From Hydrotalea sp. (GTDB taxonomy: Bacteria; Bacteroidota; Bacteroidia; Chitinophagales; Chitinophagaceae): a DNA stretch of 64,000 bases. This document shows, piece after piece, positions 16,071-38,932 of the stretch (position 1 is its first letter; each line of letters begins with the position of its first letter). The stretch is from assembly GCA_022402565.1 (NCBI GenBank), contig JAKRSC010000027.1, positions 25,060 through 89,059 on the forward strand, written 5' to 3'. The position numbers were made by a program, and so were the translations under genes. The notes beneath the pieces are model-generated. The model saw only the letters and a list, made by a program, of their open reading frames with translations. It was not told the DNA's origin and ran no database searches.

Positions 16071-16087
16071 TAAATTAATAAAGTATG

Positions 16088-16966: not shown

Positions 16967-16987
16967 AAATCAAATACCCAGCATTTA

Positions 16988-18145: not shown

Positions 18146-18248
18146 TTAAACTCTTTAAATAACTTTTTGATCTAATATAAATATTCTTTCCTAGAAAATT
18201 CTTCAAGAGTAATTAGAAATGATTGTTTATCAAAGCACTTTCGATAAA

Positions 18249-19328
18249 TTACTCTTTTACTTGATTCAAGTACCATTTAAATACACATAGAAGTAATAAC
18301 TGAGTCAACGCCAAGATGCTACCAAAAAGTAGTATAGCTTTGAGTTTCGAGTACTTATACTTTTCCAAAGGATATATTGGGTTATTAACTATTTGAATAA
18401 CCGGGGTTTCCTGGCTTAATGTGAATTTTGCCATCTCAAGGTTCTTGACAACCTCAATGTAAATGGACCCTAACATATTTTTTTCGCGCAAGGCAAGTTC
18501 AGATTTTATTGTTGGAACAGTCCTAAAGATTGGATTCATATCCATCGTAGAATTTTGAGTTTGCAAGGCCGCAGATATTCCGGTCTTTTGATTTAAAAGT
18601 AACGTCAAGCTATCAACACGACTTTGTAAAATATCTACTGTTTTCTTTTGTCTTTGTGTCTTCAAATTAACATATCGATTTATAGCAATGTTCACCAGTT
18701 GTTCGTTAAACCTTTTTGAGAACTGCTCATCACGCATTATTGAAGACAACTCAATAAATCCTGCTTTTTTATCAATTTTCTTAATCTGAAGTTCTGATTT
18801 AATGATTTTTTGTACCAAAATATTAAGGAGACTATCAATTGTTCTCTGATAAACAATTCTACTTTTGTTTTCGCTTATTTTTAACACCTCAAAGTTTAAT
18901 TGCTTACTCCATGCTTTTTTAAAGCCATTAAATTCAATATAAAAATCTCCAAATGTTTTTGTGTTATCCCACGGACTCAATAGAACTTCTCTTACAAGCG
19001 ATTCGCTTTTAAAATAATACAAAATATTTTCCCCAGCTATCAAACCACCTCCACCTCCTCCCATATCTACTCCAAACTGACCGGCCAAGGATGCCAAACC
19101 ACTCAGTCCTCCACTACTTTTCCCGTCCTCTACCACAAAAGTTGTTTTTGCAGTATAGGTTATAGGTTGCATCCAAGCATACACAAATCCAATAAGACCT
19201 CCAAGTATACCTGCAATAGCAATCTTCCACCATTGGGTTTTGAGATAGGCTACCCATTCCTTGATTTTTAGGATGAGGTCTTTTAGACTGATTTCGTCGG
19301 AAGTGGATGGTTGAATGTGTTCTGTCAT
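18249..19328 (-). CDS. Wzz-type chain-length determinant (no kinase domain)
   Basis: 359 aa. N-terminal TM (WWKIAIAGILGGLIGFVYAW) and C-terminal TM (AILLFGSILALTQLLLLCVF) flank a coiled periplasmic region. No Walker motifs. Confidence 0.7.
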   Translation of the reverse strand: MTEHIQPSTSDEISLKDLILKIKEWVAYLKTQWWKIAIAGILGGLIGFVYAWMQPITYTAKTTFVVEDGKSSGGLSGLASLAGQFGVDMGGGGGGLIAGENILYYFKSESLVREVLLSPWDNTKTFGDFYIEFNGFKKAWSKQLNFEVLKISENKSRIVYQRTIDSLLNILVQKIIKSELQIKKIDKKAGFIELSSIMRDEQFSKRFNEQLVNIAINRYVNLKTQRQKKTVDILQSRVDSLTLLLNQKTGISAALQTQNSTMDMNPIFRTVPTIKSELALREKNMLGSIYIEVVKNLEMAKFTLSQETPVIQIVNNPIYPLEKYKYSKLKAILLFGSILALTQLLLLCVFKWYLNQVKE

Positions 19329-19358: not shown

Positions 19359-19832
19359 TTAAATGAAATCATTGAGGTATCCCAGATGTCGATACCAAAA
19401 GGTTTTAACTAGTTTGTTTAAGTCAGACTTCTGAATGCTTACAATTTTTAAAAGTGAAATACATGCCTGCTTTAATGGTTCCAATTCATTTGTTACAATA
19501 TGATATACCAGGTTAGGGTCTATTCCTCTGTAGTCATGCGCTAATCTGTTTCTCAATCCAGCAATCGCATCCCATGAAACAATGGCAATTTCTTCTTTTA
19601 AAGTATCTTCTATCTTTTTTGACTCTTCGCCAATAGCCAATAATAGATGACAAACAGCATTATACGATAGCTGATCGTTTGATTCAAACATTTCTTCAGC
19701 ACTTTTATATGGCTGTGCATAAATATTAATTTTCTCTATACTCTCAAGTATAGTTAATATATACAAGATGTTTTTCTCAGAATATTGCAATTCCCTGCTT
19801 TTGAATCTGTGCGAAAATAATTGGCTCAGCAA
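19359..19832 (-). CDS. hepT: HepT-like (DUF86/HEPN) toxin
   Basis: HEPN Rx4-6H motif in GLRNRLAHDY. The listed ATG overlaps the MNT gene by 56 nt. The real start is probably the TTG at 19790 (14-nt overlap) or the TTG at 19766. Confidence 0.75.
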   Translation of the reverse strand: MLSQLFSHRFKSRELQYSEKNILYILTILESIEKINIYAQPYKSAEEMFESNDQLSYNAVCHLLLAIGEESKKIEDTLKEEIAIVSWDAIAGLRNRLAHDYRGIDPNLVYHIVTNELEPLKQACISLLKIVSIQKSDLNKLVKTFWYRHLGYLNDFI

Positions 19833-20085
19833 ATTTCTTATTCACCATCTCCACCTTTTCAATACCCAATAATGAAGACAGGTATTGCTCTAAATAAACC
19901 AAACGCATATAGGGCATGGTGCCATTTCTAGGTAATTCATACATCAAATCAATATCACTAGATGCACTCTGTTCATTTTTAGCATAACTCCCAAACAACA
20001 CAAGCGATACAATTCCAAACCTTTTTTGCAAATAATCCTTTTGGGCTTGTAGTTTTTCAATAATATGATTTGTTTGTAAAAACAT
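19777..20085 (-). CDS. mntA: MNT-type nucleotidyltransferase antitoxin
   Basis: 102 aa. LFGSYAKNEQSASSDIDL (GSx10-13DxD minimal nucleotidyltransferase motif). Confidence 0.8.
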   Translation of the reverse strand: MFLQTNHIIEKLQAQKDYLQKRFGIVSLVLFGSYAKNEQSASSDIDLMYELPRNGTMPYMRLVYLEQYLSSLLGIEKVEMVNKKFAEPIIFAQIQKQGIAIF

Positions 20086-22508: not shown

Positions 22509-22638
22509 AAATTAGTATTTGTTAGAAGGATATGGCTTCGCCTCTCTCAGTCACAGTGCGCTGAGTTAACTGGTAGGCTAAACGATTGATTTTCAACGGG
22601 GGGATAGAAATACGAACACATACTATCCATAACGGGTG

Positions 22639-22669
22639 CAAATATAATGTGAAGGCTCTCGTTAACAAA
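22639..22669 (-). promoter_or_regulatory. candidate Bacteroidota-type promoter (TTTG-N19-TATATTTG) for the Wza-led operon
   Basis: The minus strand reads TTTG-ttaacgagagccttcacat-TATATTTG. This matches the -33 TTTG / -7 TAnnTTTG consensus known for Bacteroides-type promoters. It lies about 125 nt upstream of the ATG at 22508. Confidence 0.35.
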
Positions 22670-22706
22670 TTTTTGTTTTACGGGAATTTCCACATATAGG
22701 GGGGGT

Positions 22707-23141
22707 AGTCTTTGGTTTTTGGTCTTTGGTCTTTGGTCTTTAGTCTTTAGTCTTTGGTCTTTAGTCTTTGGTCTTTAGTCTTTGGTCTTTGGTGTCATAG
22801 CCTTTGTTATTGGAACTCCAAACAAAAATTGGATTGTTTTTTATGTGGGATTAAAAAAATGTATTGCTATAAGAAGTCTATTACATTTTTATTGTTCTTT
22901 TCCCTACTTTCTTTTGCTTTCCGCCCCCAAAAAATTTTGGGGCGGATCACTAAAGGCCTACAGTGCAAACGGTCCCTGAGGCTTCCCGAAAAATCGGGAC
23001 AGGTCCCGAATGCTTACCCTGAGCTTCCCGAATAGTCGGGACAGGTGTCGAAGGGGATCGGTCAGGCTTCGAAGGGCCGTGCATTTTGCCTTGCCCACGC
23101 GCCAACTCCAGTCCGCCCAAAAGATTTTCATTTGGGCGGAC
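22707..23141 (+). repeat. mosaic intergenic repeat, copy R1 (heptamer array + body B + palindrome P + module C + 2x module D + hairpin)
   Basis: 22707-22790 is 12 tandem heptamers (GGTCTTT/AGTCTTT). 22791-22920 is the AT-rich body GGTGTCATAGCC...CCCTACTTTCTTTTGCTTT. 22921-22945 is CCGCCCCCAAAAAATTTTGGGGCGG, followed by ATCACTAAAGGCCTACAGTGCAAACGGTCCCTGAGG. Two TTCCCGAAnAnTCGGGACAGGT units follow. 23111-23141 is the hairpin GTCCGCCCAAA-N9-TTTGGGCGGAC. Near-identical blocks recur at eight or more other sites. Confidence 0.9.
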
Positions 23142-23470
23142 AGCGACGGTTATTTTATTTTTAACCTTTGCCGCTGTGCAACAAGGGTTGGCACTTCGAT
23201 TATAGAAATGTTTCTTTAGTTGCAGATCTCTAAGTAGAATGATTTTTTTGAAATTAATTTACAATTAATGCGGACTTTGAGTCACGACATTTACAGTAGC
23301 ATCGTCTTGTATAGGTAATTAAGCTATTCAATTTTACCCATATCTCGACTTTGTTTTGCTAGCCTATACTGCAACAGCGGTTCTGTTCTTCACCAACAAC
23401 CATAATAAGCTTATTCGTGGTATATTAATTGTTAAATAGCTATTCTCTATTGCATTCCTTTTAGAGCAGT

Positions 23471-23630
23471 CTCTGAAGTTCCCGAATACTTGCCCTGAGG
23501 TTCCCGAATAATCGGGACAGGTCTCGAAGGGGTGTTGTTTGGTTTTTATATTGAATGATCTACATTCGATTTAAAATAGAGCAATAGTTCAACTCCTATT
23601 TACTTGCCCCTACTTTCTTTTGCTTTCCGT
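23471..23630 (+). repeat. repeat fragments (module D, then B-tail)
   Basis: 23471-23532 is CTGAAGTTCCCGAATACTTGCCCTGAGGTTCCCGAATAATCGGGACAGGTCTCGAAGGGG. 23591-23629 is AACTCCTATTTACTTGCCCCTACTTTCTTTTGCTTTCCG (compare 39051-39090). Confidence 0.8.
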
Positions 23631-23711
23631 CTCAAGAAATATTTCATACCATTTATAATTGCAACCATTTTTTAATAGATTATTTAGCATTCCATCGGCT
23701 TTTTCGCATCG

Positions 23712-23719
23712 TACATTTG
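23712..23719 (+). promoter_or_regulatory. candidate -7 box TACATTTG upstream of the zeta-like gene
   Basis: Matches TAnnTTTG, 29 nt upstream of the ATG at 23748. No good TTTG at the -33 position. Confidence 0.25.
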
Positions 23720-23747
23720 CACTAACTAATCATGTAGATTTGCTGAT

Positions 23748-24332
23748 ATGGCGGATAAAAATCTTTACATAATTGCTGGTTGTAATGGTGCGGGCAAGAC
23801 GACAGCGTCATTCACTATTTTACCCGAAATTATTGACTGTAAAGAGTTTATAAATGCCGATGAAATTGCCAAAGGGCTATCACCGTTTCAACCCGAAAAG
23901 GTATCTTTTGAAGCTGGACGAATTATGCTGAATAGAATAGCAGAACTGTTAGAGAGTAATGAAAGTTTTGCTTTTGAAACAACTTTATCGACAGTAAGTT
24001 ATAAGCAGAAAGTTTATGAAGCGAGACAAAAAGGATTTAACATAACACTACTTTTCTTCTGGCTTCAGAGTGTAGAGTTAGCAAAGGAACGAGTCAAAAT
24101 TAGGGTTACAGAAGGCGGACATAATATTGAGCCAGATGTTATTGAAAGACGATATCTTAGAGGAATAAAAAACTTGTTCAACATTTACCTTCCTATTGTA
24201 GATGGCGCATTAATTTTCGACAACTCGTTTGGCAAACATATCTTAATTGCAAAACAAATGATAGGCAATGATTTAGAAATTATTGACAGTTCAAAATTCA
24301 CCCTTCTAAAAAAGTATCATGACAACGACTGA
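23748..24332 (+). CDS. zeta-toxin-like / COG4185-type P-loop kinase-fold ATPase
   Basis: 194 aa. Walker A at the extreme N-terminus (IIAGCNGAGKTT), a FETTLS segment, and size and architecture typical of zeta-toxin family proteins. Confidence 0.65.
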   Translation: MADKNLYIIAGCNGAGKTTASFTILPEIIDCKEFINADEIAKGLSPFQPEKVSFEAGRIMLNRIAELLESNESFAFETTLSTVSYKQKVYEARQKGFNITLLFFWLQSVELAKERVKIRVTEGGHNIEPDVIERRYLRGIKNLFNIYLPIVDGALIFDNSFGKHILIAKQMIGNDLEIIDSSKFTLLKKYHDND

Positions 24333-24468
24333 AAAACAGGCTGAACTCTACAATAAAATACTTTTAGGACTTGAAAAGGTTTATGAAAAACTAATTGAGT
24401 TTAAAAAGCAAAAGAAGTCCGAACTTGTTGTTATGAAGGGCAACAAGATTGTAAAAGTAAAACCTTAA
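24319..24468 (+). CDS. 49-aa micro-ORF overlapping the zeta-like gene by 14 nt (possible partner/antitoxin)
   Basis: ATG at 24319, TAA at 24466-24468. Product: MTTTEKQAELYNKILLGLEKVYEKLIEFKKQKKSELVVMKGNKIVKVKP. Below the 60-aa ORF-track cutoff. Predicted helix plus a short beta tail, lysine-rich. Confidence 0.35.
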   Translation: MTTTEKQAELYNKILLGLEKVYEKLIEFKKQKKSELVVMKGNKIVKVKP

Positions 24469-24567
24469 TAAAATGCCTATCGCGAAAATTTTTTTAGGTG
24501 GTATGAACAAACTTGATGTATTAAGGTTTTCCTGAAATCTAGAAACCGTGGTTTGTGACTTTTGAAT

Positions 24568-25031
24568 AGTCTTTAGTCTTTGGCCTTTAGTCTTTGGTCT
24601 TTGGTGTCATGGCCTTTTTTTGGAATTCCGAACAAAAATTGGATTGTTTTTTATGTGGGATTTAAAAAATGTATTGCTATAAGAAGTCTATTACATTTTT
24701 ATTGTTCTTTTCCCTACTTTCTTTTGCTTGAACAAAAGAAAGTAGCAAAGAAAATTCAAGTGTTTACACCCTGACCGAAAGCGTCAGGAGCAAACCCAAT
24801 TCCGCCCCATTAAAAATTATGGGGCGGACGTTTTGGCTGGCCAACGCCACCATCGCTGAAAGCCTGCTGTCCACGCGGACCTCAGCGAGCCGCTGTGTCC
24901 AGCTAGGCTAGCAATGCGTTTCTATAATCGCATTTTTAAAAAGCATAAAAAAGGTACATAAGGTAAGAAAATGCTGCACTTCAGCTAGTATTTTAAATGA
25001 ACCAAAGACCAATACCCAAAGACTAAAGACC
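24568..25031. repeat. mosaic repeat copy R3, bounded by inverted heptamer arrays (MITE-like architecture)
   Basis: Left end 24568-24602 is 5 heptamers (AGTCTTT...GGTCTTT). Body B runs from 24603. Hairpin 24714-24745 is CTACTTTCTTTTG-cttgaa-CAAAAGAAAGTAG. GC-clamp hairpin 24802-24827 is CCGCCCCAT-N8-ATGGGGCGG followed by ACGTTTT. The module C tail ends ...CCGCTGTGTCCAGCTAGGCT at about 24910. Right end 25004-25031 is 4 inverted heptamers (AAAGACC AATACCC AAAGACT AAAGACC). Confidence 0.85.
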
Positions 25032-25079
25032 TTCCTTTAAGGCCTAAGATAGCGGGCGATAGAAACCAGAAACAACCCT

Positions 25080-26375
25080 TTACAACCTACAATCCACTTC
25101 ATTCCTCGGCAAAACCGACTTGGTATCAAACACCACGGCAGAGGGTGATTTCTTGAGAGATGCTATGTTGAGTTCTAAGAATTCTTTGTGCGCAACTGCT
25201 AAAATAATTCCATCAAATTGGCCTTGAATACTAGACGACAGCTCAATATCATATTCCTTTTTTACTTCATCGGCATGAGCATGCGGGTCATAAACATCTG
25301 GTCGAATTCCATAATCTATTAATTCATTGTAAATATCAACCACACGCGAATTGCGGATATCTGGACAGTTTTCTTTAAAAGTGATCCCTAGTATGAGAAT
25401 TTTAGCGTTTGCAATAAGCATCCCGCTTTTTATCATCATCTTAATCAACTTGGAAGCTACGAAACTTCCCATGTAATCATTCACCCTTCTACCACTTAAA
25501 ATGACTTGTGGATGATAACCGAGGCTTTCAGCTTTATGAGCTAAATAGTATGGATCTACACCAATACAATGACCACCTACTAATCCAGGTTTGAATTTTA
25601 GAAAATTCCATTTAGATCCAGCAGCTTCCAGCACATCGTGTGTATCGATATTCATTTTGTCGAAAATCAAAGCCAACTCATTCACAAAAGAAATATTAAT
25701 ATCACGTTGTGCATTTTCAATGGCCTTAGATGCTTCTGCAACGCGAATGCTGGGTGCCAGATGTGTACCGGCTGTAATAATACTTCCATACAGCGCATCC
25801 ACAAATTGAGCGATTTCAGGGGTTGATCCAGATGTTACTTTTTTAATTTTTGTGAGTGTATTCACCTTATCGCCAGGATTGATTCTTTCTGGAGAATATC
25901 CGCAATAAAAATCGCGCTGGAATTTCAATTTTGAAGCCCTCTCTAGAACAGGCACACAATCCTCTTCAGTACAACCAGGGTACACTGTGGATTCATAAAT
26001 AACCACATCCCCTTTTTTCAATACTTGTCCTACCATTTCAGAAGCCGACAATAAAAAACGAAGATTAGGAGCTTTGAATTGATCAATAGGAGTTGGGACA
26101 GTTATAATAAAGACATCGCAGCGGTTGATATCTTTTAATTGATTGGTAAATTGAAGTCCAATATAACTTGTTGAATCAGCAACTATTGCAGTTTTTAGCT
26201 CTTCGAGATTAGCCTCATTTGTTCTATCTATACCATTTAGAAGTTCTTGAACTCGATTTGCATCAGTATCAAAGCCAATAACAGGGTATTTTTTTGAGAA
26301 AGCAAGTGCCAGTGGTAATCCAACATAACCTAACCCAATCACAGCAATCTTAGTTTGAGATAATTTTTGTTCCAT
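25080..26375 (-). CDS. nucleotide-sugar 6-dehydrogenase (UDP-GlcNAc/ManNAc dehydrogenase type; TviB/WecC/Cap5O-like)
   Basis: Rossmann KIAVIGLGYVGLPLALAF and catalytic-Cys motif GGHCIGVDPYY. The start is taken at MEQKL (26375); an alternative ATG lies two codons upstream (26381). Confidence 0.8.
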   Translation of the reverse strand: MEQKLSQTKIAVIGLGYVGLPLALAFSKKYPVIGFDTDANRVQELLNGIDRTNEANLEELKTAIVADSTSYIGLQFTNQLKDINRCDVFIITVPTPIDQFKAPNLRFLLSASEMVGQVLKKGDVVIYESTVYPGCTEEDCVPVLERASKLKFQRDFYCGYSPERINPGDKVNTLTKIKKVTSGSTPEIAQFVDALYGSIITAGTHLAPSIRVAEASKAIENAQRDINISFVNELALIFDKMNIDTHDVLEAAGSKWNFLKFKPGLVGGHCIGVDPYYLAHKAESLGYHPQVILSGRRVNDYMGSFVASKLIKMMIKSGMLIANAKILILGITFKENCPDIRNSRVVDIYNELIDYGIRPDVYDPHAHADEVKKEYDIELSSSIQGQFDGIILAVAHKEFLELNIASLKKSPSAVVFDTKSVLPRNEVDCRL

Positions 26376-26454
26376 GCACATATTGAAAGGTTATATATCG
26401 AGGATTTACAGAGACCAAATGTACTGGTTGGTGAGGGATATTTCATGTTGATTT

Positions 26455-26590
26455 TTGTCCCCTTTACCGAAATCATCCCGCACGGCCCCTGAGGTTCCCG
26501 AATGGTTAACCGGGGGTTCGAGAGCCTCACCCACCGGCTGAAATTATAGGTCCCTGAAGTTCCCGAATAATAGGGACAGGTCTCGAAGAG
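26455..26590 (+). repeat. repeat modules G + D
   Basis: TTTTTGTCCCCTTTACCGAAATCATCCCGCACGG (compare 31545-31575), then CCCTGAGGTTCCCGAATGG...GGTTCGAGAGCCTCACCCACCGG (found inverted at 31930-31975), then GTCCCTGAAGTTCCCGAATAATAGGGACAGGTCTCGAAG. Confidence 0.8.
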
Positions 26591-26878
26591 TTGTTTTTTG
26601 CCTTTAGTCTTTGGTCTTTGGTGTCATGGCCTTTTTTTGGGAATTCCGAACAAAAATTAGATTGTTTTTTATGTGGGATTAAAAAAATGTATTGCTATAA
26701 GATGTCTATTACATTTTTATTGTTCTTTTCCCTACTTTCTTTTGCTTTCCGCCCCCAAAAAATTTCGGGGGCGGATCACTAAAGGCCTACAGTGCAAGCG
26801 GTCCCTGAGACTTTCCGAAGGACCGGGCTGTTATCAACTAAAGACCAATTCCCAAAGACCAAAGACAGAAAAAACAAC
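26590..26878. repeat. mosaic repeat copy R4: compact 289-bp unit with ~30-bp imperfect terminal inverted repeats (MITE-like)
   Basis: Left end is GTTGTTTTTTGCCTTTAGTCTTTGGTCTTTGG. The reverse complement of the right end is GTTGTTTTTTCTGTCTTTGGTCTTTGGG. Internally it has body B, palindrome 26749-26774 CCGCCCCCAAAAAATTTCGGGGGCGG and a truncated module C. The right end touches the AbiEii stop codon (26878-26880). Confidence 0.85.
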
Positions 26879-27732
26879 TACTCCTTCACCTTCAAATGGT
26901 TCATCAAATCGAGGAAATACTGAGGTGACCAAATCTGTAAGTCTAAGGGTTTTTGAATGAACGGGAGCACATCGACCTTAACCTGCTCCATATTGACAGA
27001 GGTAATTTTTTCAGCCAACATATCCCTTAATTCTGATACAGTAACTGTATCTTTTGACCAGTCGCCGCTTTCTTTTGCACGTTGGGTAAAATGCTGCAGG
27101 TTTAATGGAACACCTTTTCTGATATACCACTCCATATCGTACCAATCTCTTCCTTTTACCCTGTTTTTCCATTTTCTGAATAAGAGCGCATGCATTTTGC
27201 CAGCAAATAAATCGGGTAGCGTAAAGCAATTCACATAAAATGAAAATGGCTTAAGCAACAACAATTGCTCTGTTTCGAATGGTAAAGCGGGATGGGTATC
27301 TACTTCCAGTTTTATTTTGATAGAGGGTTTTACTTTGAGATTCAGTTGAGGGATGGTGTTTTCTAATACCAATTCACTCCACAAAGTTTCTGACTTTAAA
27401 AATGCCGAATCAACGGCTGTTTTAAATGATTTTTGTTTCTGCGCAATGCTTACTTTCAAACCCACTGAATCAAATTCTTGCTCTACGTGTTGTAAGAAAG
27501 GATGCATCTTAAACTCGGGATTCTTTGCTAATAATGAAAAGTCAAGGTCTTCAGAAAATCTATTCAAACCATGAAATATTCTCAAAGCAGTGCCTCCGTA
27601 AAAAGCAGCATACTTAAAAAAATGAGCTCTGTATAACCCTGCTAAAGCCACTTCCTGCATAATTTCTCGCAGTGCGTTCTCTGCACTATACTGGTTTTGG
27701 GGCTGATAACTATCTAACCATTCTTTGATCAT
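26878..27732 (-). CDS. AbiEii/AbiGii-family nucleotidyltransferase toxin
   Basis: 284 aa. FYGGTALRIFHGLNRFSEDLDFSL is the hallmark N-terminal NTase motif of AbiEii. Overlaps the AbiEi gene by 4 nt. Confidence 0.8.
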   Translation of the reverse strand: MIKEWLDSYQPQNQYSAENALREIMQEVALAGLYRAHFFKYAAFYGGTALRIFHGLNRFSEDLDFSLLAKNPEFKMHPFLQHVEQEFDSVGLKVSIAQKQKSFKTAVDSAFLKSETLWSELVLENTIPQLNLKVKPSIKIKLEVDTHPALPFETEQLLLLKPFSFYVNCFTLPDLFAGKMHALLFRKWKNRVKGRDWYDMEWYIRKGVPLNLQHFTQRAKESGDWSKDTVTVSELRDMLAEKITSVNMEQVKVDVLPFIQKPLDLQIWSPQYFLDLMNHLKVKE

Positions 27733-28367
27733 ATTTTACTTAAGTATTGAACGAGTTTTTGAATACTGTTTCTCTTGGGACAAGCATCCAGCCAGGAGTT
27801 GATGAGGCGGCTATTCAATTTTTTCAGTTGATCTTGCTCTATTCGCAAATCTTCTAACAGATACTCCTGCACCTGTTGAACACTTCTCAGTTGCAGCCCC
27901 GCAGTGGTGATCACTTTATCTGTCAAACTTTTTTCAGGACTTGCAATGAGTATGTTCTGTTGTTCTGTTAGATGGATGGATTGCACCCCAACAGGATAAT
28001 ATTCCGTTTGAACATGCTTGAATGAAAAATGGCCTATACTTGTTTGAAAGTTTTTGGAAGACCTCATGGTTATACTAGAAACTTCATACACCCTTTCGGG
28101 TATTAAGCCCCAATAATGCAGTGCTGAATCAGTAGAAATATAACTGGGTCCATACAGATGGTTGGCCACCAAAAATGGCTCCGGGGCAGCAATACCGGCT
28201 AAGGCAGTAGGAATGTATAGTCCCCGCCTGATTTGCTTTAAATAGCCTTGCGCTACCATTTCCATGATTTTATCATAGGGTCGATGGTAATCCTTGAGTA
28301 TGCCAAGTAGTACAGACGTGCTCAAAGGCTGTTGGGAATACTGTCTGAGTTGTTGCCGCCAGTCCAT
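27729..28367 (-). CDS. AbiEi-family antitoxin/transcriptional regulator
   Basis: 212 aa. An N-terminal winged-helix-like region (..MVAQGYLKQIRRGLYIP) is followed by a C-terminal AbiEi_4-like domain. Sits immediately upstream of AbiEii and is translationally coupled to it. Confidence 0.7.
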   Translation of the reverse strand: MDWRQQLRQYSQQPLSTSVLLGILKDYHRPYDKIMEMVAQGYLKQIRRGLYIPTALAGIAAPEPFLVANHLYGPSYISTDSALHYWGLIPERVYEVSSITMRSSKNFQTSIGHFSFKHVQTEYYPVGVQSIHLTEQQNILIASPEKSLTDKVITTAGLQLRSVQQVQEYLLEDLRIEQDQLKKLNSRLINSWLDACPKRNSIQKLVQYLSKI

Positions 28368-28386
28368 TTGCCAAATTTAACTATAT

Positions 28387-28407
28387 AATTCGGAAAATTT
28401 CCGAATT
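28387..28407. promoter_or_regulatory. perfect 10-1-10 palindrome AATTCGGAAAATTTCCGAATT; candidate AbiEi operator
   Basis: Lies 20-40 nt upstream of the AbiEi ATG (28367), 8 nt upstream of a -7-like box (minus strand TAAATTTG, 28372-28379). AbiEi proteins are known to autoregulate through inverted repeats in their promoter. Confidence 0.45.
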
Positions 28408-28433
28408 AAAGTGCATTTTTTAGCAATAATTCT

Positions 28434-28644
28434 AGTTTTCGGTCTTTTGTCTTTAGTATTTGGTCTTTGGTGTATGGAACTCCAAACAAAAATTAGACTG
28501 TTTTTTATGTTTGATTACAACAATGTATTCCAAGCCTAGCTGGGCACAGCGGTCCATCGGCATGCTAAGAGACCGCTTGCACTTTAGGCCTTTAGTGATC
28601 CGCCCACAAAATTTTTTGGGGGCGGAAAGCAAAAGAATGTAGGA
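28434..28644. repeat. mosaic repeat copy R5 with internally inverted C/P/B-tail modules
   Basis: Heptamers at 28434-28468. The B head is GGTGTATGGAACTCCAAACAAAAATTAGACTG.... Then comes AGCCTAGCTGGGCACAGCGG...ACCGCTTGCACTTTAGGCCTTTAGTGATCCGCCCACAAAATTTTTTGGGGGCGGAAAGCAAAAGAATGTAGG, which is the reverse complement of the P+C order seen in R1, R4, R7 and R8, with an internal deletion. Confidence 0.85.
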
Positions 28645-28740
28645 AGAAGAAGAAAAGGAATAAGTTGATCATATTATATCCAAGCAGTTACCAAGGAGTC
28701 TTCAAGCAAAAAAGAAAGAAAAACAGGCATTGAAGGATCA

Positions 28741-28860
28741 CGTTCCCACGATGGGAGGCCCCGAATCGCACTTCGAGAGCCTCAGGGACCGTGCGGGGTG
28801 ACGATAAAAAAGAGGGTTTCCCTACGATGAATGTCGGGACTGCAAGCCCGCTTTTGAAGC
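28741..28860 (+). repeat. repeat module F/D fragments
   Basis: CGTTCCCACGATGGGAGG...CTTCGAGAGCCTCAGGGACCG...ACGATGAATGTCGGGACTGCAAGCCCGC. Compare 31811-31866 (CGTTCCCACGACGGGAGATCCCCAACGATGAATGTCGGGACTCAAAGCCCGC). Confidence 0.8.
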
Positions 28861-28896
28861 AAGAATGATACTTAAAAGTAGCAAGTAACCCTTTAT

Positions 28897-31329
28897 CTAC
28901 CTCGTTATTTGCCAAATTAAAAAACCAGTGGTTGTGAGTGTAGATAAGGCTGAAATAAAAATACCAGCTCTAGCGAGATCAAAACCTTTAGATGGTTGCT
29001 TTTGAGGTACCACTACTAATGACCCAGGTAATACTTTGGGATTTTTAGGAATGAACCCAAGAACATACTTTTTGGTTTTGGATTTGCCATTTGCGTAGGT
29101 TACATAAATACTCTTCTTTTTTGCTGTTTCATTTAAACCACCAGCCATTTGAATAAAATATTGAAGCTTGGTGCTTTTTTCAAATACATAGGTACCAGGA
29201 TTATACACTTCACCACTTACAACCACATAATCATTCTTTTTAAGGAAAACCAGCTCATCTCCTTCTTCCAAAATTAAGTCGTTTACAGAGCCTGGTGCTG
29301 CCAATGCTTTTCCTAATTCAACATACAGATCTTTATTAATAGCTAATTGTACTTTTTTAATGAGCGTTCCAGAGGAATCCTTTGACTCAGATTGAGCAAG
29401 TTGTTCAATGGATGTTGAGTCAATTTTTTCTGAAACTCTTCTCTTAATTAGAGCTACTTGCTCGTTAGCTGTATATTTCAATCCACCTGCTCGTTTCAAA
29501 AATGAACTAACCCTTTCTGAACCAGTTTTTAGAACATACGAACCTGGATTTATAACCTCACCAGAAACATTCACAACTTTTGGCTGAGATAAGTAAGGAT
29601 CTTTTCTAACTGTTACCCTGTCATAGGGCTCTAAGAGAAATTCAGAAGATTGTTTTGAAAGTGTACCTTCATTTAATTCAATTACAAACAACTTGCTAAG
29701 CTCACCACCTAGTTGCTGTGTACTGCTATCTCTTACAACCCGGGCAACTTCAATTCTATCTATAACTGCATCATAAACAAACCCATTTGCCAATACCAGC
29801 AGGGCTTCTAAAGTCATTCCTTTTTGAAAGACCATTTGACCAGGCTTTTTTACAGCGCCATCAATTTGTACGGTCATTTCCAAAGCTAAGTCTCGCTTTG
29901 AAGGAACAGTTATTTCATCATCCTTTATTAAAACCCAATTATATAAACTAGGATTCAGCATAATGCTATCATAAGAGAAAGAATAGAACTCCTTATTCTT
30001 CCGATCATCGGACAGTCTAGCTAATTGAATTCTACCTCGAAATGCATCTTCCTTTAATCCTTCCGCTTTTTCTATCAAATCCTTTATATTCATTTTAGGT
30101 TGCAATGAATAAGCTCCGGGTCTATAAACAGCACCAGAAATTTGTACTCGGTTTTCAAAACGGTCTAATACAGATCCTACTGTTATAACATCTCCATCCA
30201 CCAATTCGGTTTTTGATAATGAGTCTGATAATACATCTATCATTTTTTGCTCTTTGCCAGTAATTCTTGTAATGGAAAGCAGGTTTTTAAAAGCCCTTGC
30301 CGAGAATCCACCTGCGTATTCTAGAAGTGTGTTGACTTTCTCATGAGCCAACATTTCAAATTGAGCAGGTTTATTCACTTCACCTTGTAAGGTTACTTGA
30401 ATCTTTGCATAAGGAATACGAATCACATCATCATCATGCAATAACACATTATCACTTACTTGACCATATACCAAGAATTTATACAAATCAGCCTTTAAAA
30501 CCACTTTCCCATTTCTAATGAGTTCTACTTCCCTTAATGAACCATTGGCTAATGGTCCCCCACTTTGATAAAGCGCATTAAATAAGGTTGTTAAACTAGG
30601 AACATTATAAGACCCAGGGGCAACAACCGCTCCTAAAATGGTTATTCTTATTGAACGAATGTTTCCTAGAGATAACATCAGTTTTGACTTGCCATTAGCT
30701 AATCCCGGATAAATTTTTGAGAGGGCTTTAGAAAGTTTAATTTTTGCTTCTTCGATACTTAGTCCATTTAATAAAACTGGGGGAATGTATTTATAACGAA
30801 CCATACCCTCAGAATTGATTAGTAAATTGAATTGAATGTCTGTACTTCCATGAATATCTACTCTGAGCTCATCTTCAGGTCCAAGACGATATTGAGTGGG
30901 CGTGGACATACGTAAATTGGGGGTAAAACTTAACTTATCGTTTGAAAACCATTCCAACCCAAAGATGGATGTCTCTTTAGGCTTTGGATTGGTACTAGTT
31001 AATTCAGTTCTCTGGATTTGACGTGCTTTTTGTTGGGGCAAGCTGGATGGACTTGATGGACTTGATGGCAATGAATTTCTAAGATCATTCACCCTCATCA
31101 TAATTTTCCCCATTTCATCCGATGATAATCCTCTTTTTAAAAGTTCATTTTGAATAAATTCGTCAGAATAACCTTCCGCATTTGCTTTGGCAATTAATTG
31201 CTTCAATTGATCATCACTAATGTTTTCTGATTTAATAGTAGGTAACATAGTGATTACCTCTTGGCATAAACCTTGTTGGAGAAAGGTAGAAACCAAAATC
31301 CCGGCTAGAATAAAAATTCTAAGAAACAT
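28897..31329 (-). CDS. second Wza-like multi-SLBB polysaccharide export protein (paralogue of 20094..22508)
   Basis: 810 aa with the same architecture as the first Wza: signal peptide, N-terminal helical module (SDDQLKQLIAKANAEGYSDEFIQNELLKRGLSSDEM), YRLGPEDELRVDIHG, repeated SLBB units and a C-terminal TM helix. Monocistronic, with repeats on both sides. Confidence 0.8.
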   Translation of the reverse strand: MFLRIFILAGILVSTFLQQGLCQEVITMLPTIKSENISDDQLKQLIAKANAEGYSDEFIQNELLKRGLSSDEMGKIMMRVNDLRNSLPSSPSSPSSLPQQKARQIQRTELTSTNPKPKETSIFGLEWFSNDKLSFTPNLRMSTPTQYRLGPEDELRVDIHGSTDIQFNLLINSEGMVRYKYIPPVLLNGLSIEEAKIKLSKALSKIYPGLANGKSKLMLSLGNIRSIRITILGAVVAPGSYNVPSLTTLFNALYQSGGPLANGSLREVELIRNGKVVLKADLYKFLVYGQVSDNVLLHDDDVIRIPYAKIQVTLQGEVNKPAQFEMLAHEKVNTLLEYAGGFSARAFKNLLSITRITGKEQKMIDVLSDSLSKTELVDGDVITVGSVLDRFENRVQISGAVYRPGAYSLQPKMNIKDLIEKAEGLKEDAFRGRIQLARLSDDRKNKEFYSFSYDSIMLNPSLYNWVLIKDDEITVPSKRDLALEMTVQIDGAVKKPGQMVFQKGMTLEALLVLANGFVYDAVIDRIEVARVVRDSSTQQLGGELSKLFVIELNEGTLSKQSSEFLLEPYDRVTVRKDPYLSQPKVVNVSGEVINPGSYVLKTGSERVSSFLKRAGGLKYTANEQVALIKRRVSEKIDSTSIEQLAQSESKDSSGTLIKKVQLAINKDLYVELGKALAAPGSVNDLILEEGDELVFLKKNDYVVVSGEVYNPGTYVFEKSTKLQYFIQMAGGLNETAKKKSIYVTYANGKSKTKKYVLGFIPKNPKVLPGSLVVVPQKQPSKGFDLARAGIFISALSTLTTTGFLIWQITR

Positions 31330-31368
31330 ACAATAGATGAATTGAAAATGTTATGGGGGGACAAGTGG

Positions 31369-31376
31369 CAAATATA
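31369..31376 (-). promoter_or_regulatory. candidate -7 box TATATTTG upstream of the second Wza gene
   Basis: The octamer is identical to the one at 22639-22646 (minus strand TATATTTGC). It lies about 40 nt upstream of the ATG at 31329. The -33 element is poor (TTTC). Confidence 0.25.
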
Positions 31377-31508
31377 TGAATCCTAGTTGATTCTAACAGA
31401 AATAGTAAACTCATCAAAAAGCCAGGCAATTACTAGTAGACATATATTTTCACTGATAATTAGTGTGATGTTAACCAACCAAGGACGAGAAAAAAATTAC
31501 CAGCGGCT

Positions 31509-32010
31509 GGTCTTTAGTTTTTAGTCTTTAGTCGTTGGCTGTTGGTTTTTGTCCCCTTTTCCGAAGTCATCCCTAACTTGATCAGGGATCTGTTGTTAAT
31601 GAACGCAGTAACCCAGAAGCTAATAATGCTTTTATTGAGTGAAGAGGGTTGGTGGAGTTACGTTTCTACTACAGGAGATCCCGCATTAAATGCAGGATGA
31701 CGTTATGGGGAGGGGCTGGATGACGTTCTTGGAGCGTGCGGAATCTGTTTTTTTGAATGCGGTAACCGAAAGGCCTATTATTCTTATTATGAAAGGGGAT
31801 GGTTTGGTTACGTTCCCACGACGGGAGATCCCCAACGATGAATGTCGGGACTCAAAGCCCGCATTGCCCCTTCGAAGCCTGTCCCGGCCCTTCGAGAACC
31901 TCAGGGACTGGGCATTCGGGAAACCTCAGGTAACTGCTCTCGAACCCCAAATCATAATTCCATACCGGTGGGTGGCCTTCCGGAAACCTGAGGAACCAAT
32001 CATTTCAGCC
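31509..32010 (+). repeat. mosaic repeat region R6 (heptamers + G + 2xE + F + D-type modules)
   Basis: 31509-31550 holds 6 degenerate heptamers. Then come TTTTTGTCCCCTTTTCCGAAGTCATCCCT and the E units (GGGATCTGTTGTTAATGAACGCAGTAACCCAGAAG; GCGGAATCTG..GAATGCGGTAACCGAAAGG). F is at 31811-31866. D-like CCCCTTCGAAGCCTGTCCCGG...CATTCGGGAAACCTCAGG follows. The 116-aa ORF at 31690..32040 lies wholly inside this region. Confidence 0.8.
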
Positions 32011-32023
32011 GGTAGCTGGCCTA

Positions 32024-32311
32024 TTATCTTGTACCAATAGGGGCAACTTGAATTTGTCCGCCCAATGCTTTTAGAACTTTTAGAATTGTAGTAAATTGTG
32101 GTTTAGATCCTTGTGCCAGCGATTTATATAAACTGGGTCTGCTTAAGCCAGTATGTTCAGCAATTTTCGTCATTCCAATAGCTTTTGCAACATGTCCAAT
32201 TGCTGCAATTATTTCATCATTATTGCCCTCTTCCAACACTGTATTTAAATATTCAGCAATCATTTCATTGCTTTCTAAATAATCTGCTATTTCAAATTTT
32301 GAGGTTTCCAT
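32024..32311 (-). CDS. addiction-module antidote protein, HigA family (HTH)
   Basis: 95 aa. YLESNEMIAEYLNTVLEEGNNDEIIAAIGHVAKAIGMTKIAEHTGLSRPSLYKSL..KPQFTTILKVLKALG is the typical layout of this antidote family. Confidence 0.75.
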   Translation of the reverse strand: METSKFEIADYLESNEMIAEYLNTVLEEGNNDEIIAAIGHVAKAIGMTKIAEHTGLSRPSLYKSLAQGSKPQFTTILKVLKALGGQIQVAPIGTR

Positions 32312-32314
32312 TGC

Positions 32315-32618
32315 CTACTTTTTAATCTTGTTCCAAATTTCTTTTGCTTTTTCAATATCCTTTTGCTGGGTAGACTTATCACCTCCAACTAAAAGAATAA
32401 TAATTCTACCATCTGTTTCCTTAAAATAAACTCGATAGCCCTTTGAATAGTTTATCCTCAACTCTTTAATTCCACCACCCACTGGTTTACAATCGCCAAA
32501 ATACTCTTCCTTTTCTAATCGTTGATTGAATTCGAAATAAAATCTTAGCCTTTGCGGTTATGTCATTTAATTTCCTCAGCCATTTATCGAATTCAGTAGT
32601 CCTTTCTATGAGAAACAT
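32315..32618 (-). pseudogene. frameshifted addiction-module killer gene (RelE/ParE superfamily, HigB-like partner of the antidote)
   Basis: The ATG at 32618 gives MFLIERTTEFDKWLRKLNDITAKAKILFRIQ, then a stop 15 codons later. The +1 frame continues QRLEKEEYFGDCKPVGGGIKELRINYSKGYRVYFKETDGRIIILLVGGDKSTQQKDIEKAKEIWNKIKK* with its stop at 32315-32317. The frames are reconciled by removing one copy of a tandem TCAA-TCAA (plus strand TTGATTGA, 32522-32529). Confidence 0.75.
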
Positions 32619-32728
32619 GGCAAATAACGTATTCACTTGGATACAAAATTATGTCAAAAAAGTAATCCAAGAAATTAATTTTAGAGACTTCTACTAACGA
32701 ACATTTGAGAACCACTTTTTTAACCTTT

Positions 32729-33076
32729 GGTTGTTGGTCATTTTTTGGTCTTTTGTCTTTGGTCTTTGGTGTCATGGCATTTGTTATTGGAACTCCAAAT
32801 AAAAGTTAGATTGTTTTTTATGTGTGATTACAAAAACGTTTTGGTATAAGAAGCCTATTGCATTTTTATTGTTCTTTTCCCTACTTTCTTTTGCTTTCCG
32901 CCCCCAAAAAATTTTGGGGTCGGATGGTTCGAATTGCCAAAACATCACTAAAGGCCTACAGTGCAAGCGGTCCCTGAGGCTCTCGAAGGGCCGCGCGTTT
33001 TGGCTGGCCAACGCCACCATCGCTGAGTGCCTGCTGTCCACGTGCTGCTCAGCGAGCCGCTGTGTCCAGCTAGGCT
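32729..33076 (+). repeat. mosaic repeat copy R7 (heptamers + B + P + C)
   Basis: Heptamers at about 32729-32767. Body GGTGTCATGGCATTTGTTATTGGAACTCC.... Palindrome at 32899-32923, with an extra segment (about 20 nt) containing GGTTCGAATTGCCAAAAC. Full module C ends ...GCTCAGCGAGCCGCTGTGTCCAGCTAGGCT. Confidence 0.9.
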
Positions 33077-33177
33077 TGGCCATACGTATTTATTAAAAGT
33101 GGAAAGTAACCATTCAACAGATTTTTTTCTACCATCTCTTTTGCTTGAAGCCCCTTTCAAGTGCAACGTTACATGTG

Positions 33178-33255
33178 GGGACTAAAAGCCCGCATCGCCC
33201 CTTCGGCACCTGTCCCGACTATTCGGGAGGTTCAGGGCAAGCATTCGGGAACCGC
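33178..33255 (-). repeat. module F-tail/D, inverted orientation
   Basis: GGGGACTAAAAGCCCGCATCGCCCCTTCGGCACCTGTCCCGACTATTCGGGAGGTTCAGGGCAAGCATTCGGGAACC is the reverse complement of the D units at 22981-23055. Confidence 0.8.
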
Positions 33256-33276
33256 AGTGACTAGGCAAGAAAATCC

Positions 33277-33520
33277 AAAGACCAACAACTAAAGACCAAC
33301 AACTAAAGACCAAAGACCTACTTCCAACCAAAGACCAACAACTAAAGACCAAAGACCTACTTCCAACCAAAGACCAACAGCTAAAGACCAAAGACCTACT
33401 TCCAACTAAAGACCAACAGCTAAAGACTAAAGACCTACTTCCAACTAAAGACCAACAGCTAAAGACCAAAGACCTACTTCCAACTAAAGACCAACAGCTA
33501 AAGACTAACAAACAAAGACT
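33277..33520 (-). repeat. higher-order tandem repeat: 5 full 39-bp units (plus partial ends) built from AAAGACC-type heptamers
   Basis: Units start at 33291, 33330, 33369, 33408 and 33447. The unit is AAAGACC-AACA(A/G)CT-AAAGAC(C/T)-AAAGACC-TACTTCC-AAC(C/T), i.e. 5x7+4 nt. The period was verified from CCTAC positions 33317, 33356, 33395, 33434 and 33473. 39 nt equals 13 codons, which explains the artefactual 114-aa ORF at 33182..33526. Confidence 0.95.
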
Positions 33521-33533
33521 TATCATTTCCCCC

Positions 33534-33541
33534 TATTTTTG
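33534..33541 (+). promoter_or_regulatory. candidate -7 box TATTTTTG for the GT2-led operon
   Basis: Matches TAnnTTTG, 17 nt upstream of the TTG start at 33558 and 14 nt after the tandem array. The -33 position falls inside the array and has no TTTG. Confidence 0.25.
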
Positions 33542-33557
33542 ATAAAAACCATATCTC

Positions 33558-38924: not shown

Positions 38925-38932
38925 TTGGGGTT

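Follow-up and report, generated by a model that had tools for sequence, protein, structure and literature searches.

The five gene units between two glycan loci in the window (the whole 64-kb stretch of Hydrotalea DNA analysed here) form a cassette island that is real as a pattern, and this pattern looks like a REP-like spacer system rather than novel machinery for recombining gene cassettes. What repeats is the spacer and not a cassette site. We believe that the long spacers are probably a REP/BIME-like system of nested palindromes that secondarily aids rearrangement, and not dedicated cassette recombination sites. The basic element would be a hairpin with a heptamer-array stem, (GGTCTTT)n - loop - (AAAGACC)n, directly beside gene ends. 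Its loop may have been inflated in the host lineage by the nested insertion of other small hairpin modules, so that each long spacer would be a mosaic closed by two heptamer arms. Because each independently transcribed unit has a spacer on both sides, every island unit looks bracketed.

The island extends from the Wza operon to the GT operon (22509-33557), and its units are parted by six repeat-rich gaps. The unit order and gene content given in the preliminary description were confirmed by domain and PADLOC matches. The left Wza is 100% identical to a Hydrotalea sp. MAG protein at NCBI, and the host belongs to Chitinophagaceae and not to the cyanobacteria. TA or Abi modules make up three of the five units, and the units have mixed orientation and probably their own promoters. 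The units and all repeat-bearing gaps of the window are as follows.

22509-23747, no strand: gap R1 between the Wza operon (minus) and the zeta-like unit (plus); left heptamer arm of 12 units (22707-22790), composite unit (22754-23056), small hairpin modules (23468-23541)
23748-24468, plus strand: zeta-like ATPase (194 aa, 23748-24332), then an overlapping 49-aa ORF; weak Zeta_toxin/AAA_33 match (Zeta_toxin E 7.6e-8, 32.5 bits); no PADLOC match for the unit
24469-25079, no strand: gap R3, a complete heptamer-armed nested palindrome; left arm GGTCTTT (24568-24602), right arm AAAGACC (24997-25031), several hairpins inside; the arms pair in the ssDNA fold (z = -9.9)
25080-26381, minus strand: UDP-glucose/GDP-mannose (UDP-sugar) dehydrogenase, by domain match
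26382-26877, no strand: gap R4; composite unit (26582-26832), left arm (26600-26619) and right arm (26840-26867), the latter with its end 12 nt from the stop codon of AbiEii; arms paired in the fold (z = -3.9)
26878-28367, minus strand: AbiEii-AbiEi abortive-infection / type IV TA pair, by domain matches and PADLOC; AbiEii 26878-27732, AbiEi 27729-28367 (PADLOC E 3e-70)
28368-28896, no strand: gap R5; perfect palindrome, left arm (28441-28468), partial composite unit, inverted copy of modules B-D (28549-28659)
28897-31329, minus strand: orphan Wza-like exporter (Poly_export + SLBB), 34% identical to the left (operon) Wza
31330-32023, no strand: gap R6; left arm (31509-31536) and modules (31566-31929) common to other Hydrotalea genomes
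32024-32636, minus strand: HigA-like, HI1420-type antidote (32024-32311; HI1420 family match) and disrupted Gp49/HigB-type killer gene (32315-32636)
32637-33557, no strand: gap R7; left arm (32747-32767), composite unit (32741-33076), right arm grown into a tandem array of 39 nt x 5.6 (33270-33520, period 97% identical), with 38 nt between it and the GT operon
38925-39538, no strand: gap outside the island at the GT-operon end; left arm (38933-38981) 9 nt past the GT-operon stop, modules B-E (39055-39301), decayed right arm (39516-39529)
43103-43477, no strand: gap outside the island at a serine carboxypeptidase gene; right arm (43424-43472) ending 6 nt from its stop
52634-53356, no strand: gap outside the island between a LysE exporter and a Mur ligase; left arm (52643-52663) 10 nt past a stop, hairpin module and module E (52785-52939)

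The doubled heptamer GTCTTTRGTCTTT was matched 46 times in the 64-kb window when at most one mismatch was allowed, compared with 0.29 expected in shuffles, and all six island gaps hold related repeats, as first described. The same description had assigned them to a single repeat family; we found instead a mosaic of heptamer arrays and at least seven short hairpin modules, the latter in the interior of the long gaps. The TRF repeat unit is GTCTTTG, and GTCTTTA is a common variant. Every heptamer array falls in an intergenic gap, although coding sequence makes up 87% of the window. They have a strict polarity, with (GGTCTTT)n at the left end of a gap and (AAAGACC)n at the right end at 13 of 13 sites, which covers all nine repeat-bearing gaps. 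Arrays start 3-12 nt past stop codons, and some stand instead upstream of genes. The composite unit of about 160-230 nt is present in four full copies and one partial copy, all on the plus strand and 88-97% identical to each other. Inverted repeats of 125 nt lie on both sides of the AbiE pair (26685-26809 and 28565-28689), an arrangement that speaks against the spacer reading.

The repeats extend beyond the island: they recur at 38924-39417, 43399-43475 and 52643-52939, beside housekeeping transcription units. All nine gaps of at least 375 nt carry repeats, three of them beside housekeeping-type genes, and none of the nine gaps of 245 nt or less does. The density survey took in about 130 kb from this genome and related ones. 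Among gaps of at least 60 nt in the window, 6 of 6 in the island and 3 of 12 elsewhere bear repeats, a nominal enrichment (hypergeometric P of about 0.005, calculated by hand) for a region that was picked post hoc for that very property. This enrichment counts against our preferred reading, as does module A (about 110 nt), which within the 64 kb occurs only inside the island.

Among the nearest known counterparts are the REP and BIME elements of Enterobacteria and Pseudomonas. Like these, the elements are short intergenic palindromic units, often a few nucleotides from stop codons, that form mosaics of units in both orientations and vary in copy content between close strains. In contrast to REP/BIME, the stems are tandem heptamer arrays and not a unique palindrome of 20-40 bp, the hairpins carry no unpaired GTAG or CGTC tag, no RAYT gene was seen within the 64 kb, the elements also occur in divergent promoter gaps, and the outer arms enclose whole spacers of up to about 900 nt. 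Heptamer-armed hairpins were also found in a sample from several other phyla, where they are short, stand alone with unrelated loops and have no cassette in between. Among the matches listed, the order GGTCTTT-loop-AAAGACC within 300 nt was found 18 times and the reverse order twice, and 11 of the 12 clean cases lie between tandem or convergent ORFs. REPs have likewise been reported mostly between tandem and convergent genes (PMC3733652). The metagenome scan returned chance matches only.

Other repeat families share parts of this architecture. The STRR heptamer repeats of cyanobacteria and the small dispersed repeats of Nostoc are intergenic tandem heptanucleotide arrays with nested small repeats. 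TAACTGA heptamer repeats are reported to be distributed patchily across phyla, in Beggiatoaceae, Cyanobacteria and Bacteroidetes; binding by a Csp-type protein has been suggested for heptamer repeats, and only one indirect repeat of TAACTGA was reported (PMC4679880). Our arrays resemble all three families as many-copy intergenic tandem heptamers with tiny repeats nested in others and a patchy distribution across phyla, and differ in their host, a member of Chitinophagaceae, and in their unit, GTCTTTG/A. Inverted pairs with strict polarity that form hairpin arms were not described for TAACTGA (PMC4679880). The spacers also resemble MITEs, for example the minisatellite-bearing 'BrickBuilt' elements of Porphyromonas gingivalis (PMC4596501), which are likewise from Bacteroidota: our elements are non-coding, with inverted termini and internal tandem repeats, their copies are 88-97% similar, and the inverted copies around the AbiE pair recall MITE pairs that mobilise intervening genes. 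Unlike in MITEs, the termini are arrays of variable length and not a fixed inverted repeat, and these arrays keep their positions from one species to another. Neither a parent IS nor a transposase turned up, and no target-site duplication was found at the elements, whose flanks extend the palindrome instead.

Alignment to relatives showed that the interval is not invariant. Arrays adjoin the same gene ends in L003, L075, L164, L166 and L167. L167, an independent JGI contig of 17.9 kb from another sample, is 95-97% identical to the window and agrees with it in the units between the GT and Wza operons, in their order and in their orientation, except that it lacks a 1.8-kb segment (window 31407-33208) with HigBA and its flanking repeats. 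In addition, its zeta-like ATPase is split into two ORFs, and its R3 interior is wholly remodelled or replaced, with one module inverted. L003 is a more distant congener (about 75% identical) with the same flanking synteny as the window; between the glycan operons it keeps only the dehydrogenase, together with a different, degraded small unit, and it lacks the orphan Wza that is present in L167. Its spacers consist of a simple hairpin with heptamer arms, about 100-115 nt long and repeated in tandem; the loop of this hairpin is homologous to the beginning of the composite unit of the window. In L166, the HigBA unit (91% identical) has moved to the other side of the GT operon; its homology ends exactly at the transcription-unit edges, and its flanking repeats are not common to the window. 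It sits between direct repeats of about 350-400 nt (about 80% identical over 357 nt), which are the footprint expected of circle integration by recombination at a repeat and as such weigh against the spacer reading. A neighbouring four-gene block of L166 is inverted and is bounded by oppositely oriented arrays. Outside the island, the position of the array at the carboxypeptidase gap is kept in L166 and L075, and the LysE/Mur ligase array is kept in three genomes with different interiors (724, 656 and 246 nt).

These alignments show that the spacers evolve through slippage and through the insertion and inversion of modules, and that whole transcription units have been added, removed, moved or inverted within them. 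The spacers would provide dispersed homology and permissive DNA for ordinary homologous or illegitimate recombination, and the spacer system is very fast-evolving and probably lineage-specific. Most likely the elements would serve, or be tolerated, as hairpins of the REP/BIME type that end or insulate transcripts.

It is also conceivable, though rather unlikely, that the elements work at the RNA level as bidirectional transcript-end or insulator hairpins, that their U-rich arm (GUCUUUG)n is a tandem series of putative Csp sites, and that the gene flux is incidental. Csp bound to the first-transcribed arm would block the hairpin, and the Csp level would tune readthrough or stability. The TRF unit matches the in-vitro consensus heptanucleotide of Bacillus subtilis CspB, 5'-GTCTTTG/T-3' (PMC1904285), but this is a literature resemblance to a Firmicute protein, and the common variant GTCTTTA departs from G/T at position 7. 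The T-rich arm comes first on either strand, both in the window and in the predominant order of the other phyla; such a model requires strict polarity, which hairpin formation alone does not, but a mobile element with inverted repeats at its ends would show the same polarity. The array starts just past stop codons, the array positions kept across species while interiors change, and the occurrence in several phyla with unrelated loops also agree with a role in RNA. However, the arrays upstream of genes do not follow stops, and the terminator scan detected no excess of canonical terminators.

According to the preliminary description, the repeats may shuffle cassettes. Acinetobacter pdif modules are Xer-dependent, have mixed orientation and lack a linked recombinase. 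If our repeats were dedicated recombination substrates like these or like integron attC sites, an unlinked recombinase would capture, excise and shuffle accessory cassettes of one or two genes between the glycan loci; we consider this improbable. Inverted heptamer arrays do flank every unit, and units of one or two genes, often TA modules, are parted by structured imperfect palindromes as in integrons and pdif modules, with mixed orientation and no linked recombinase as in the latter. The variable unit content among relatives, the three TA or Abi units and both rearrangements in L166 would also be expected. The shuffling proposal held in so far as the interval varies and the differences fall in repeat-bearing gaps; it did not hold for a fixed breakpoint, a recombinase or an attC core. 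Rearrangements fall in the repeat-bearing spacers, not at a fixed site or core. The HigBA indel between the window and L167, the only strain-level indel, does not break at heptamers or palindromes, and its left breakpoint falls in unique sequence, with the closest array about 100 nt away. Two other indels, of HepT-MNT inside the Wza operon and of a CHAT gene, are without any repeats. The Pfam search of the window ORFs tested found no transposase or integrase, in agreement with the first reading, and no recombinase, Xer-type included, was found in the 64 kb. The repeats contain no attC-type R''/R' core, no Xer-type site was identified, and the heptamer is the only conserved site. Unlike integrons, the island has no IntI, and its units differ in orientation and probably have their own promoters; unlike both systems, its spacers are heterogeneous mosaics of 0.4-1.2 kb that also flank core genes, at positions conserved across species. 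The stand-alone hairpins of other phyla, with no cassette between them, argue in the same direction.

The array just before each of the two glycan operons might be a simple-sequence contingency locus, in which slippage would tune or switch capsule and glycan expression while the other repeats are neutral, but this is very doubtful. At R1, before the Wza operon, 12 units are present in the window and 6 in the 95%-identical L167, and the position of the 250-nt array before the GT operon also holds an array in L167 and a much shorter one in L003. Phase variation in H. influenzae is reported to be mediated by heptanucleotide repeats upstream of genes (PMC8262952, PMC12721329). However, the same arrays follow stop codons of unrelated housekeeping genes, promoters at the arrays are putative, the sigma-70 scan does not apply to Bacteroidota, and the inverted arms and nested modules are left unexplained. 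Finally, although the source is a MAG and the same sample, assembled independently from short reads, yields contigs that break at the repeat modules (22913-24612, 24849-26536, 28608-31908 and 31879-32890), it is extremely unlikely that the island is an assembly artefact of unrelated short contigs strung together through shared repeats, as these contigs match the window at 100% identity and the order in L167 and the flanks in L003 agree with it.

The perfect palindrome in R5 (28386-28408) is likely the AbiEi operator.

ORF, domain and PADLOC annotation confirmed the gene order that the preliminary description had given for the island at 22509-33557, with five units between the Wza operon on the left and the GT operon on the right. 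The strands of the five units are +, -, -, -, and -, respectively, with divergent operons on both flanks, and their genes are as follows.

23748-24332, + strand, Zeta_toxin/AAA_33 ATPase (weak match)
24319-24468, 49-aa ORF overlapping the zeta-like ATPase
25080-26381, UDP-glucose/GDP-mannose dehydrogenase
26878-28367, AbiEii and AbiEi (PADLOC E values of 4e-117 and 3e-70, respectively)
28897-31329, protein with Poly_export and SLBB domains (orphan Wza), 34% identical to the operon Wza
32024-32311, HI1420-family antidote
32315-32636, Gp49/HigB-type gene, in fragments

Among the island units, only AbiE matched PADLOC; the rest comprise a zeta-like ATPase (weak match), an antitoxin whose toxin is dead, a dehydrogenase, and an exporter. 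The AbiEi start codon is preceded, at a distance of 19 nt, by a perfect 23-nt palindrome, TAATTCGGAAAATTTCCGAATTA (28386-28408), which probably serves the AbiE pair as its autoregulatory operator. The GC content of the units was 0.31-0.42, compared with 0.37 for the window, and does not set the units apart as foreign. Integrase, recombinase, and transposase Pfam families were absent from all ORFs of the 64-kb window, in agreement with the first reading, and the search for tRNA or tmRNA genes as landmarks of integration was negative. Rfam gave no match in the whole window at gathering thresholds and, on the island at E values up to 1, only two mir-204 matches, which were attributed to chance. 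The 804-aa Wza-like protein (20094-22508) was 100% identical to "MAG: SLBB domain-containing protein [Hydrotalea sp.]", and its next relatives were from Chitinophagaceae. A Nostoc-type cyanobacterium, to which the GGTCTTT heptamers and nested small repeats had seemed to point, was rejected as the source on the basis of this match.

The order of the units is not an assembly artefact, because an independent JGI contig from another sample has the same order. Short-read contigs from the same sample were 100% identical to the window. The Logan short-read contigs of SRR15669396 stop exactly inside repeat modules (ends at 22913, 24612, 24849, 26536, 28608, 31879-31908, and 32890), so each island unit assembles alone, in 1-3 kb. 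Since the spacers break short-read assemblies at every unit, the recovery of accessory genes in MAGs of this group is biased, and the accessory genes of the Hydrotalea clade would be systematically fragmented or lost in short-read MAGs.

Self-comparison together with tandem-repeat and motif scans showed that related repeats are present in all six island gaps (R1, R3, R4, R5, R6, and R7, from left to right), and GTCTTTRGTCTTT with at most one mismatch occurred 46 times against 0.29 expected. The repeats had been assigned to one common family, which did not hold: self-comparison resolved heptamer arrays and at least seven short modules. Module A is about 110 nt long, with five copies, all on the + strand and all within the island. 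The further modules are as follows.

CTACTTTCTTTTG hairpin half
TCCGCCCC...GGGGCGGA palindrome
GGCCTACAGTGCAAGCGG
G+C-rich hairpin, 85 nt
mini-hairpins CCCTGAGG/TCGAAGGG
CGATGAATGTCGGGAC

Modules reach 4-7 copies in 64 kb, all intergenic, and the pairwise identity of the copies is 88-97%. Modules B-E occur in either orientation and in varied combinations in R1, R3, R4, R5, R7, 39055-39301, and 52785-52939. Composite units of 160-230 nt are directly oriented, and neighbouring ones are 93-96% identical.

The window, which is 87% coding, contains 17 heptamer arrays under a relaxed definition, and all 17 are intergenic. In the nine repeat-bearing gaps, GGTCTTT stands at the left end and AAAGACC at the right end at 13 of 13 sites. 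Read in its own sense strand, each transcription unit on either strand has AAAGACC arrays upstream and GGTCTTT right after the stop, and the arrays begin 3-12 nt past the stops at 38924, 43478, 52633, and 26878. When R3 (24560-25050) and R4 (26590-26872) were folded as single-stranded DNA, the arms paired and closed the whole spacer over nested hairpins, with z scores of -9.9 and -3.9, respectively. A scan for sigma-70 promoters and terminators gave no excess over shuffled sequences, the sigma-70 model being unsuited to Bacteroidota promoters. At 33270-33526, 38 nt upstream of the GT operon, 5.6 copies of a 39-nt unit stand in tandem (97% matches). The repeat is in frame, and the resulting spurious 114-aa ORF (33182-33526) could be annotated as a gene. 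The ORFs inside repeats (93, 95, 99, 90, and 114 aa) matched no Pfam family above the curated cut-off, the last having a sub-threshold match to DUF7011, and were treated as spurious.

Repeats of this kind are not an island-specific feature; three repeat-bearing gaps lie outside 22509-33557.

38925-39538, after the GT operon
43103-43477, after the serine carboxypeptidase gene
52634-53356, between the LysE exporter and Mur ligase genes

Repeat content sorts the 18 gaps of 60 nt or more strictly by length: the nine repeat-bearing gaps all measure at least 375 nt, and none of the nine repeat-free ones exceeds 245 nt. Repeats were found in 6/6 island gaps versus 3/12 gaps outside (hypergeometric P about 0.005 by hand), an enrichment that is nominal since the region had been picked for its repeat bracketing and the outside gaps are mostly intra-operon or short divergent promoter gaps. 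There are no repeats around the HepT-MNT toxin-antitoxin pair inside the Wza operon (19359-20085). A pattern of identical repeats on both sides of every gene can thus come from spacer-filling repeats with no cassette machine.

The interval proved variable among relatives, with units gained, lost, moved, and inverted in contigs L167, L003, and L166. The only strain-level comparator is L167 (JGI 3300048597, 17.9 kb), which is 95-97% identical to the window and shares with it the gene order GT operon, orphan Wza, AbiE, dehydrogenase, zeta unit, Wza operon. Positions 31407-33208 of the window, comprising R6, HigBA, and the left part of R7, are missing in L167 and replaced by 155 unrelated nt. The cassette boundaries had been expected at the heptamers or palindromes; the right breakpoint of this indel is within a mini-hairpin module, and the left one falls in unique DNA, with the nearest array about 100 nt away. 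Simple deletion between direct repeats is not supported for this indel, because the sole pair (31833-31929 and 33164-33257, 77% identical) lies off the breakpoints at 31406 and 33209. The R1 heptamers number 6 in L167 versus 12 in the window, and the interior of R3 is wholly different in L167, with one module inverted. The pair of HepT-like RNase and MNT nucleotidyltransferase genes at 19359-20085 sits between Wza and Wzz in the export operon; L167 is without it and has Wzz directly after Wza, and L003 has the MNT gene only.

The genes of L003 (ENA ERZ25038477 NODE_871) are about 75% identical to those of the window. L003 retains the Wza operon, dehydrogenase, and GT operon, is without the zeta, AbiE, orphan Wza, and HigBA units, and carries another small, degraded unit between Wza and the dehydrogenase. 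Its 5 kb of spacer is built from a simple hairpin of about 100-115 nt in long tandem arrays, (GGTCTTT)n - CTTTTTTGGAGTTCTAAAAACTGG - (AAAGACC)n, the loop of which is homologous to the start of module A. This homology identifies the simple hairpin as the basic element and shows that the window spacers are versions of it in which the loop has been inflated. These arrays, at 3730-5450 and 7740-9800 of L003, are minisatellite-like, with at least 20 copies in total and an assembly gap of Ns. A CRISPR array was rejected as an explanation for their regularity, because the inter-array sequences are themselves repeated and no cas genes were called there. In two more distant loci (L004 and L005, Wza 70% identical), neither the island nor the arrays were found.

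L166 comes from the same ENA sample as L003 at a different coverage and is 80-86% identical to the window. Its HigBA unit is 91% identical and lies downstream of the GT operon (upstream in the window); the homology stops exactly at the edges of the transcription unit and includes about 45 nt upstream of the first gene. The unit lies between direct repeats of about 350-400 nt that are about 80% identical over 357 nt, which fits integration by recombination at a repeat. The block 39579-42055, with genes for a 143-aa ORF, an NMN transporter, an AAA_28 ATPase, and a monofunctional transglycosylase, is inverted in L166 (4938-7413), with oppositely oriented arrays at its bounds, and the adjacent methyltransferase (42098-43102) is missing there. 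Another Hydrotalea MAG (L075) has the L166-type arrangement and orientation beside the peptidase gene. A third relative (L164, 82-85% identical) lacks the gene for a 1056-aa CHAT-domain protein that the window has at 55418-58588, between a Crp-family regulator gene and an aquaporin gene, and that L166 also has; the gaps bordering this gene are repeat-free. The array directly after the LysE stop is kept in 3/3 genomes, with a LysE/Mur ligase interior of 724, 656, and 246 nt. The last gene of the GT operon (431 aa, 37629-38924) matched no Pfam family in its window copy, and its L166 counterpart has a weak match to Polysacc_synt (flippase). The 801-aa protein at 49426-51831, conserved in three relatives, also had no Pfam family.

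A survey of one genome per species with a three-unit heptamer pattern gave, among the matches listed, Acidobacteriota (Pyrinomonadaceae, Vicinamibacterales, and Blastocatellia), many Bacteroidota, Nostocaceae, Methylococcales, Vibrionaceae, and others. Among the same listed matches, neighbouring opposed arrays at most 300 nt apart had the order GGTCTTT-loop-AAAGACC in 18 cases versus the reverse order in 2, with unrelated loops, and 11 of 12 clean intergenic hairpins were between tandem or convergent ORFs, mostly filling the gap; as the ORFs are heuristic, these orientation and placement counts are indicative only. Across phyla, with heuristic ORFs, no simple rule linked the strand of an array to that of its neighbouring gene; what does hold is where in the gap an array stands and in which order the arms come. 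A metagenome scan with module B gave 33 matches, none with extended similarity to the window.

We believe that the best explanation of the spacers is a REP/BIME-like system of nested palindromic repeats with heptamer-array arms, in a phylum with few such systems described. Like REP/REPIN elements, the repeats are short multicopy palindromes, extragenic and mostly downstream of genes, and such REP-like palindromic repeats have a transcript-end distribution as in 11/12 of the cross-phylum hairpins (PMC3733652). They also share with BIMEs a mosaic of palindromic units with alternating orientation and variable linkers. REP/REPIN elements are defined by an unpaired GTAG (or CGTC) tetranucleotide at one end (PMC3733652), whereas the flanks of the perfect hairpins with stems of at least 9 bp have no unpaired GTAG/CGTC (tcca/agcg, ttcc/caaa, caat/cgtt, gctt/tcac, tata/aagt, and ctct/caaa). 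One hairpin stem ends in GTAG, but it is paired, and no RAYT (Y1 HUH transposase) gene was found in the 64-kb window. The repeats resemble MITEs in the terminal inverted repeats formed by the GGTCTTT/AAAGACC arms, which pair in the R3 and R4 folds, but inspection showed no target-site duplication by the arms of R3 or R4, and there is no IS in the window; the R4 flanks are mutually complementary. The BrickBuilt MITE of P. gingivalis and a Cardinium MITE differ from the window repeats in sequence and build. The likeness to cyanobacterial STRRs lies in tandem intergenic heptamers, whereas the host here belongs to Hydrotalea/Chitinophagaceae and is not a heterocystous cyanobacterium; the heptamer unit also differs from the STRR units. 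Modules of the pdif/Xer type are bounded by inverted 28-bp XerC-XerD binding sites; the units here have inverted heptamer arrays on their flanks. An integron cassette array is not supported, because no IntI-like integrase is present in the ORFs of the 64-kb window, the six pairs of R'' (RYYYAAC) and R' (GTTRRRY) cores 40-130 nt apart window-wide include none in the nine repeat-bearing gaps, and the island units are of mixed orientation rather than promoterless and in a single orientation. No paper was found on repeats of Hydrotalea or Sediminibacterium, or on the GTCTTTG/GGTCTTT heptamer as a bacterial repeat. Nor did the searchable literature yield a description of a Chitinophagaceae REP-like system built on GTCTTTG arrays, with strict polarity, a gene-end position conserved between species, and a fast-changing interior.

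The preliminary description had proposed that the repeats may act as recombination substrates that shuffle accessory units. This model is only partly supported. Gain, loss, relocation, and inversion do affect entire transcription units and have their breakpoints in spacers; against the model, there is no common site, the repeats flank other units too, and some indels are repeat-free. Array positions at gene ends are conserved across species, and array length and spacer interior change faster than the 3-5% sequence divergence. Conserved position, a fast interior, and scattered breakpoints are as expected of permissive, homology-rich DNA and argue against an attC-like or dif-like site. As the composite units are directly oriented and 93-96% identical, intervening units would be prone to RecA-dependent deletion; together with the L166 repeats around HigBA, this makes a secondary role of the repeats in rearrangement plausible. 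Such an aid to rearrangement is a generic consequence of dispersed repeats.

The tandem-repeat consensus unit (TRF) is GTCTTTG, which is the same as the in-vitro consensus heptanucleotide 5'-GTCTTTG/T-3' of B. subtilis CspB (PMC1904285), and Csp proteins had earlier been suggested as possible binding proteins for other heptamer repeats (PMC4679880). We regard this resemblance as a lead and not a finding. Given the strict polarity, transcription from either direction would reach the U-rich arm first. A Csp-controlled hairpin would require this order, but a mobile element with terminal inverted repeats would have the same polarity. In a joint reading, which we consider unlikely, heptamer-armed hairpins would be undescribed cross-phylum bidirectional boundaries of transcription units, at which Csp occupancy of the binding heptamers arrayed on the first-transcribed U-rich arm decides hairpin formation and between which units can be exchanged or inverted; complementary arrays at both ends of a unit would then explain the unit-precise gene flux. 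If the arms are protein-binding boundary elements or recombination hot spots, transcript-end control would be linked to modular gene flux at capsule loci.

The left glycan locus (window 1-19328; contig L126) extends more than 10 kb past the window and contains genes for NeuB, CMP-sugar cytidylyltransferases, aminotransferases, and GNAT acetyltransferases, a gene set suggestive of a nonulosonic-acid sugar pathway of the legionaminic/pseudaminic type. The genes beyond Wzz differ in L167 and L003, so this locus is itself replaced between relatives.
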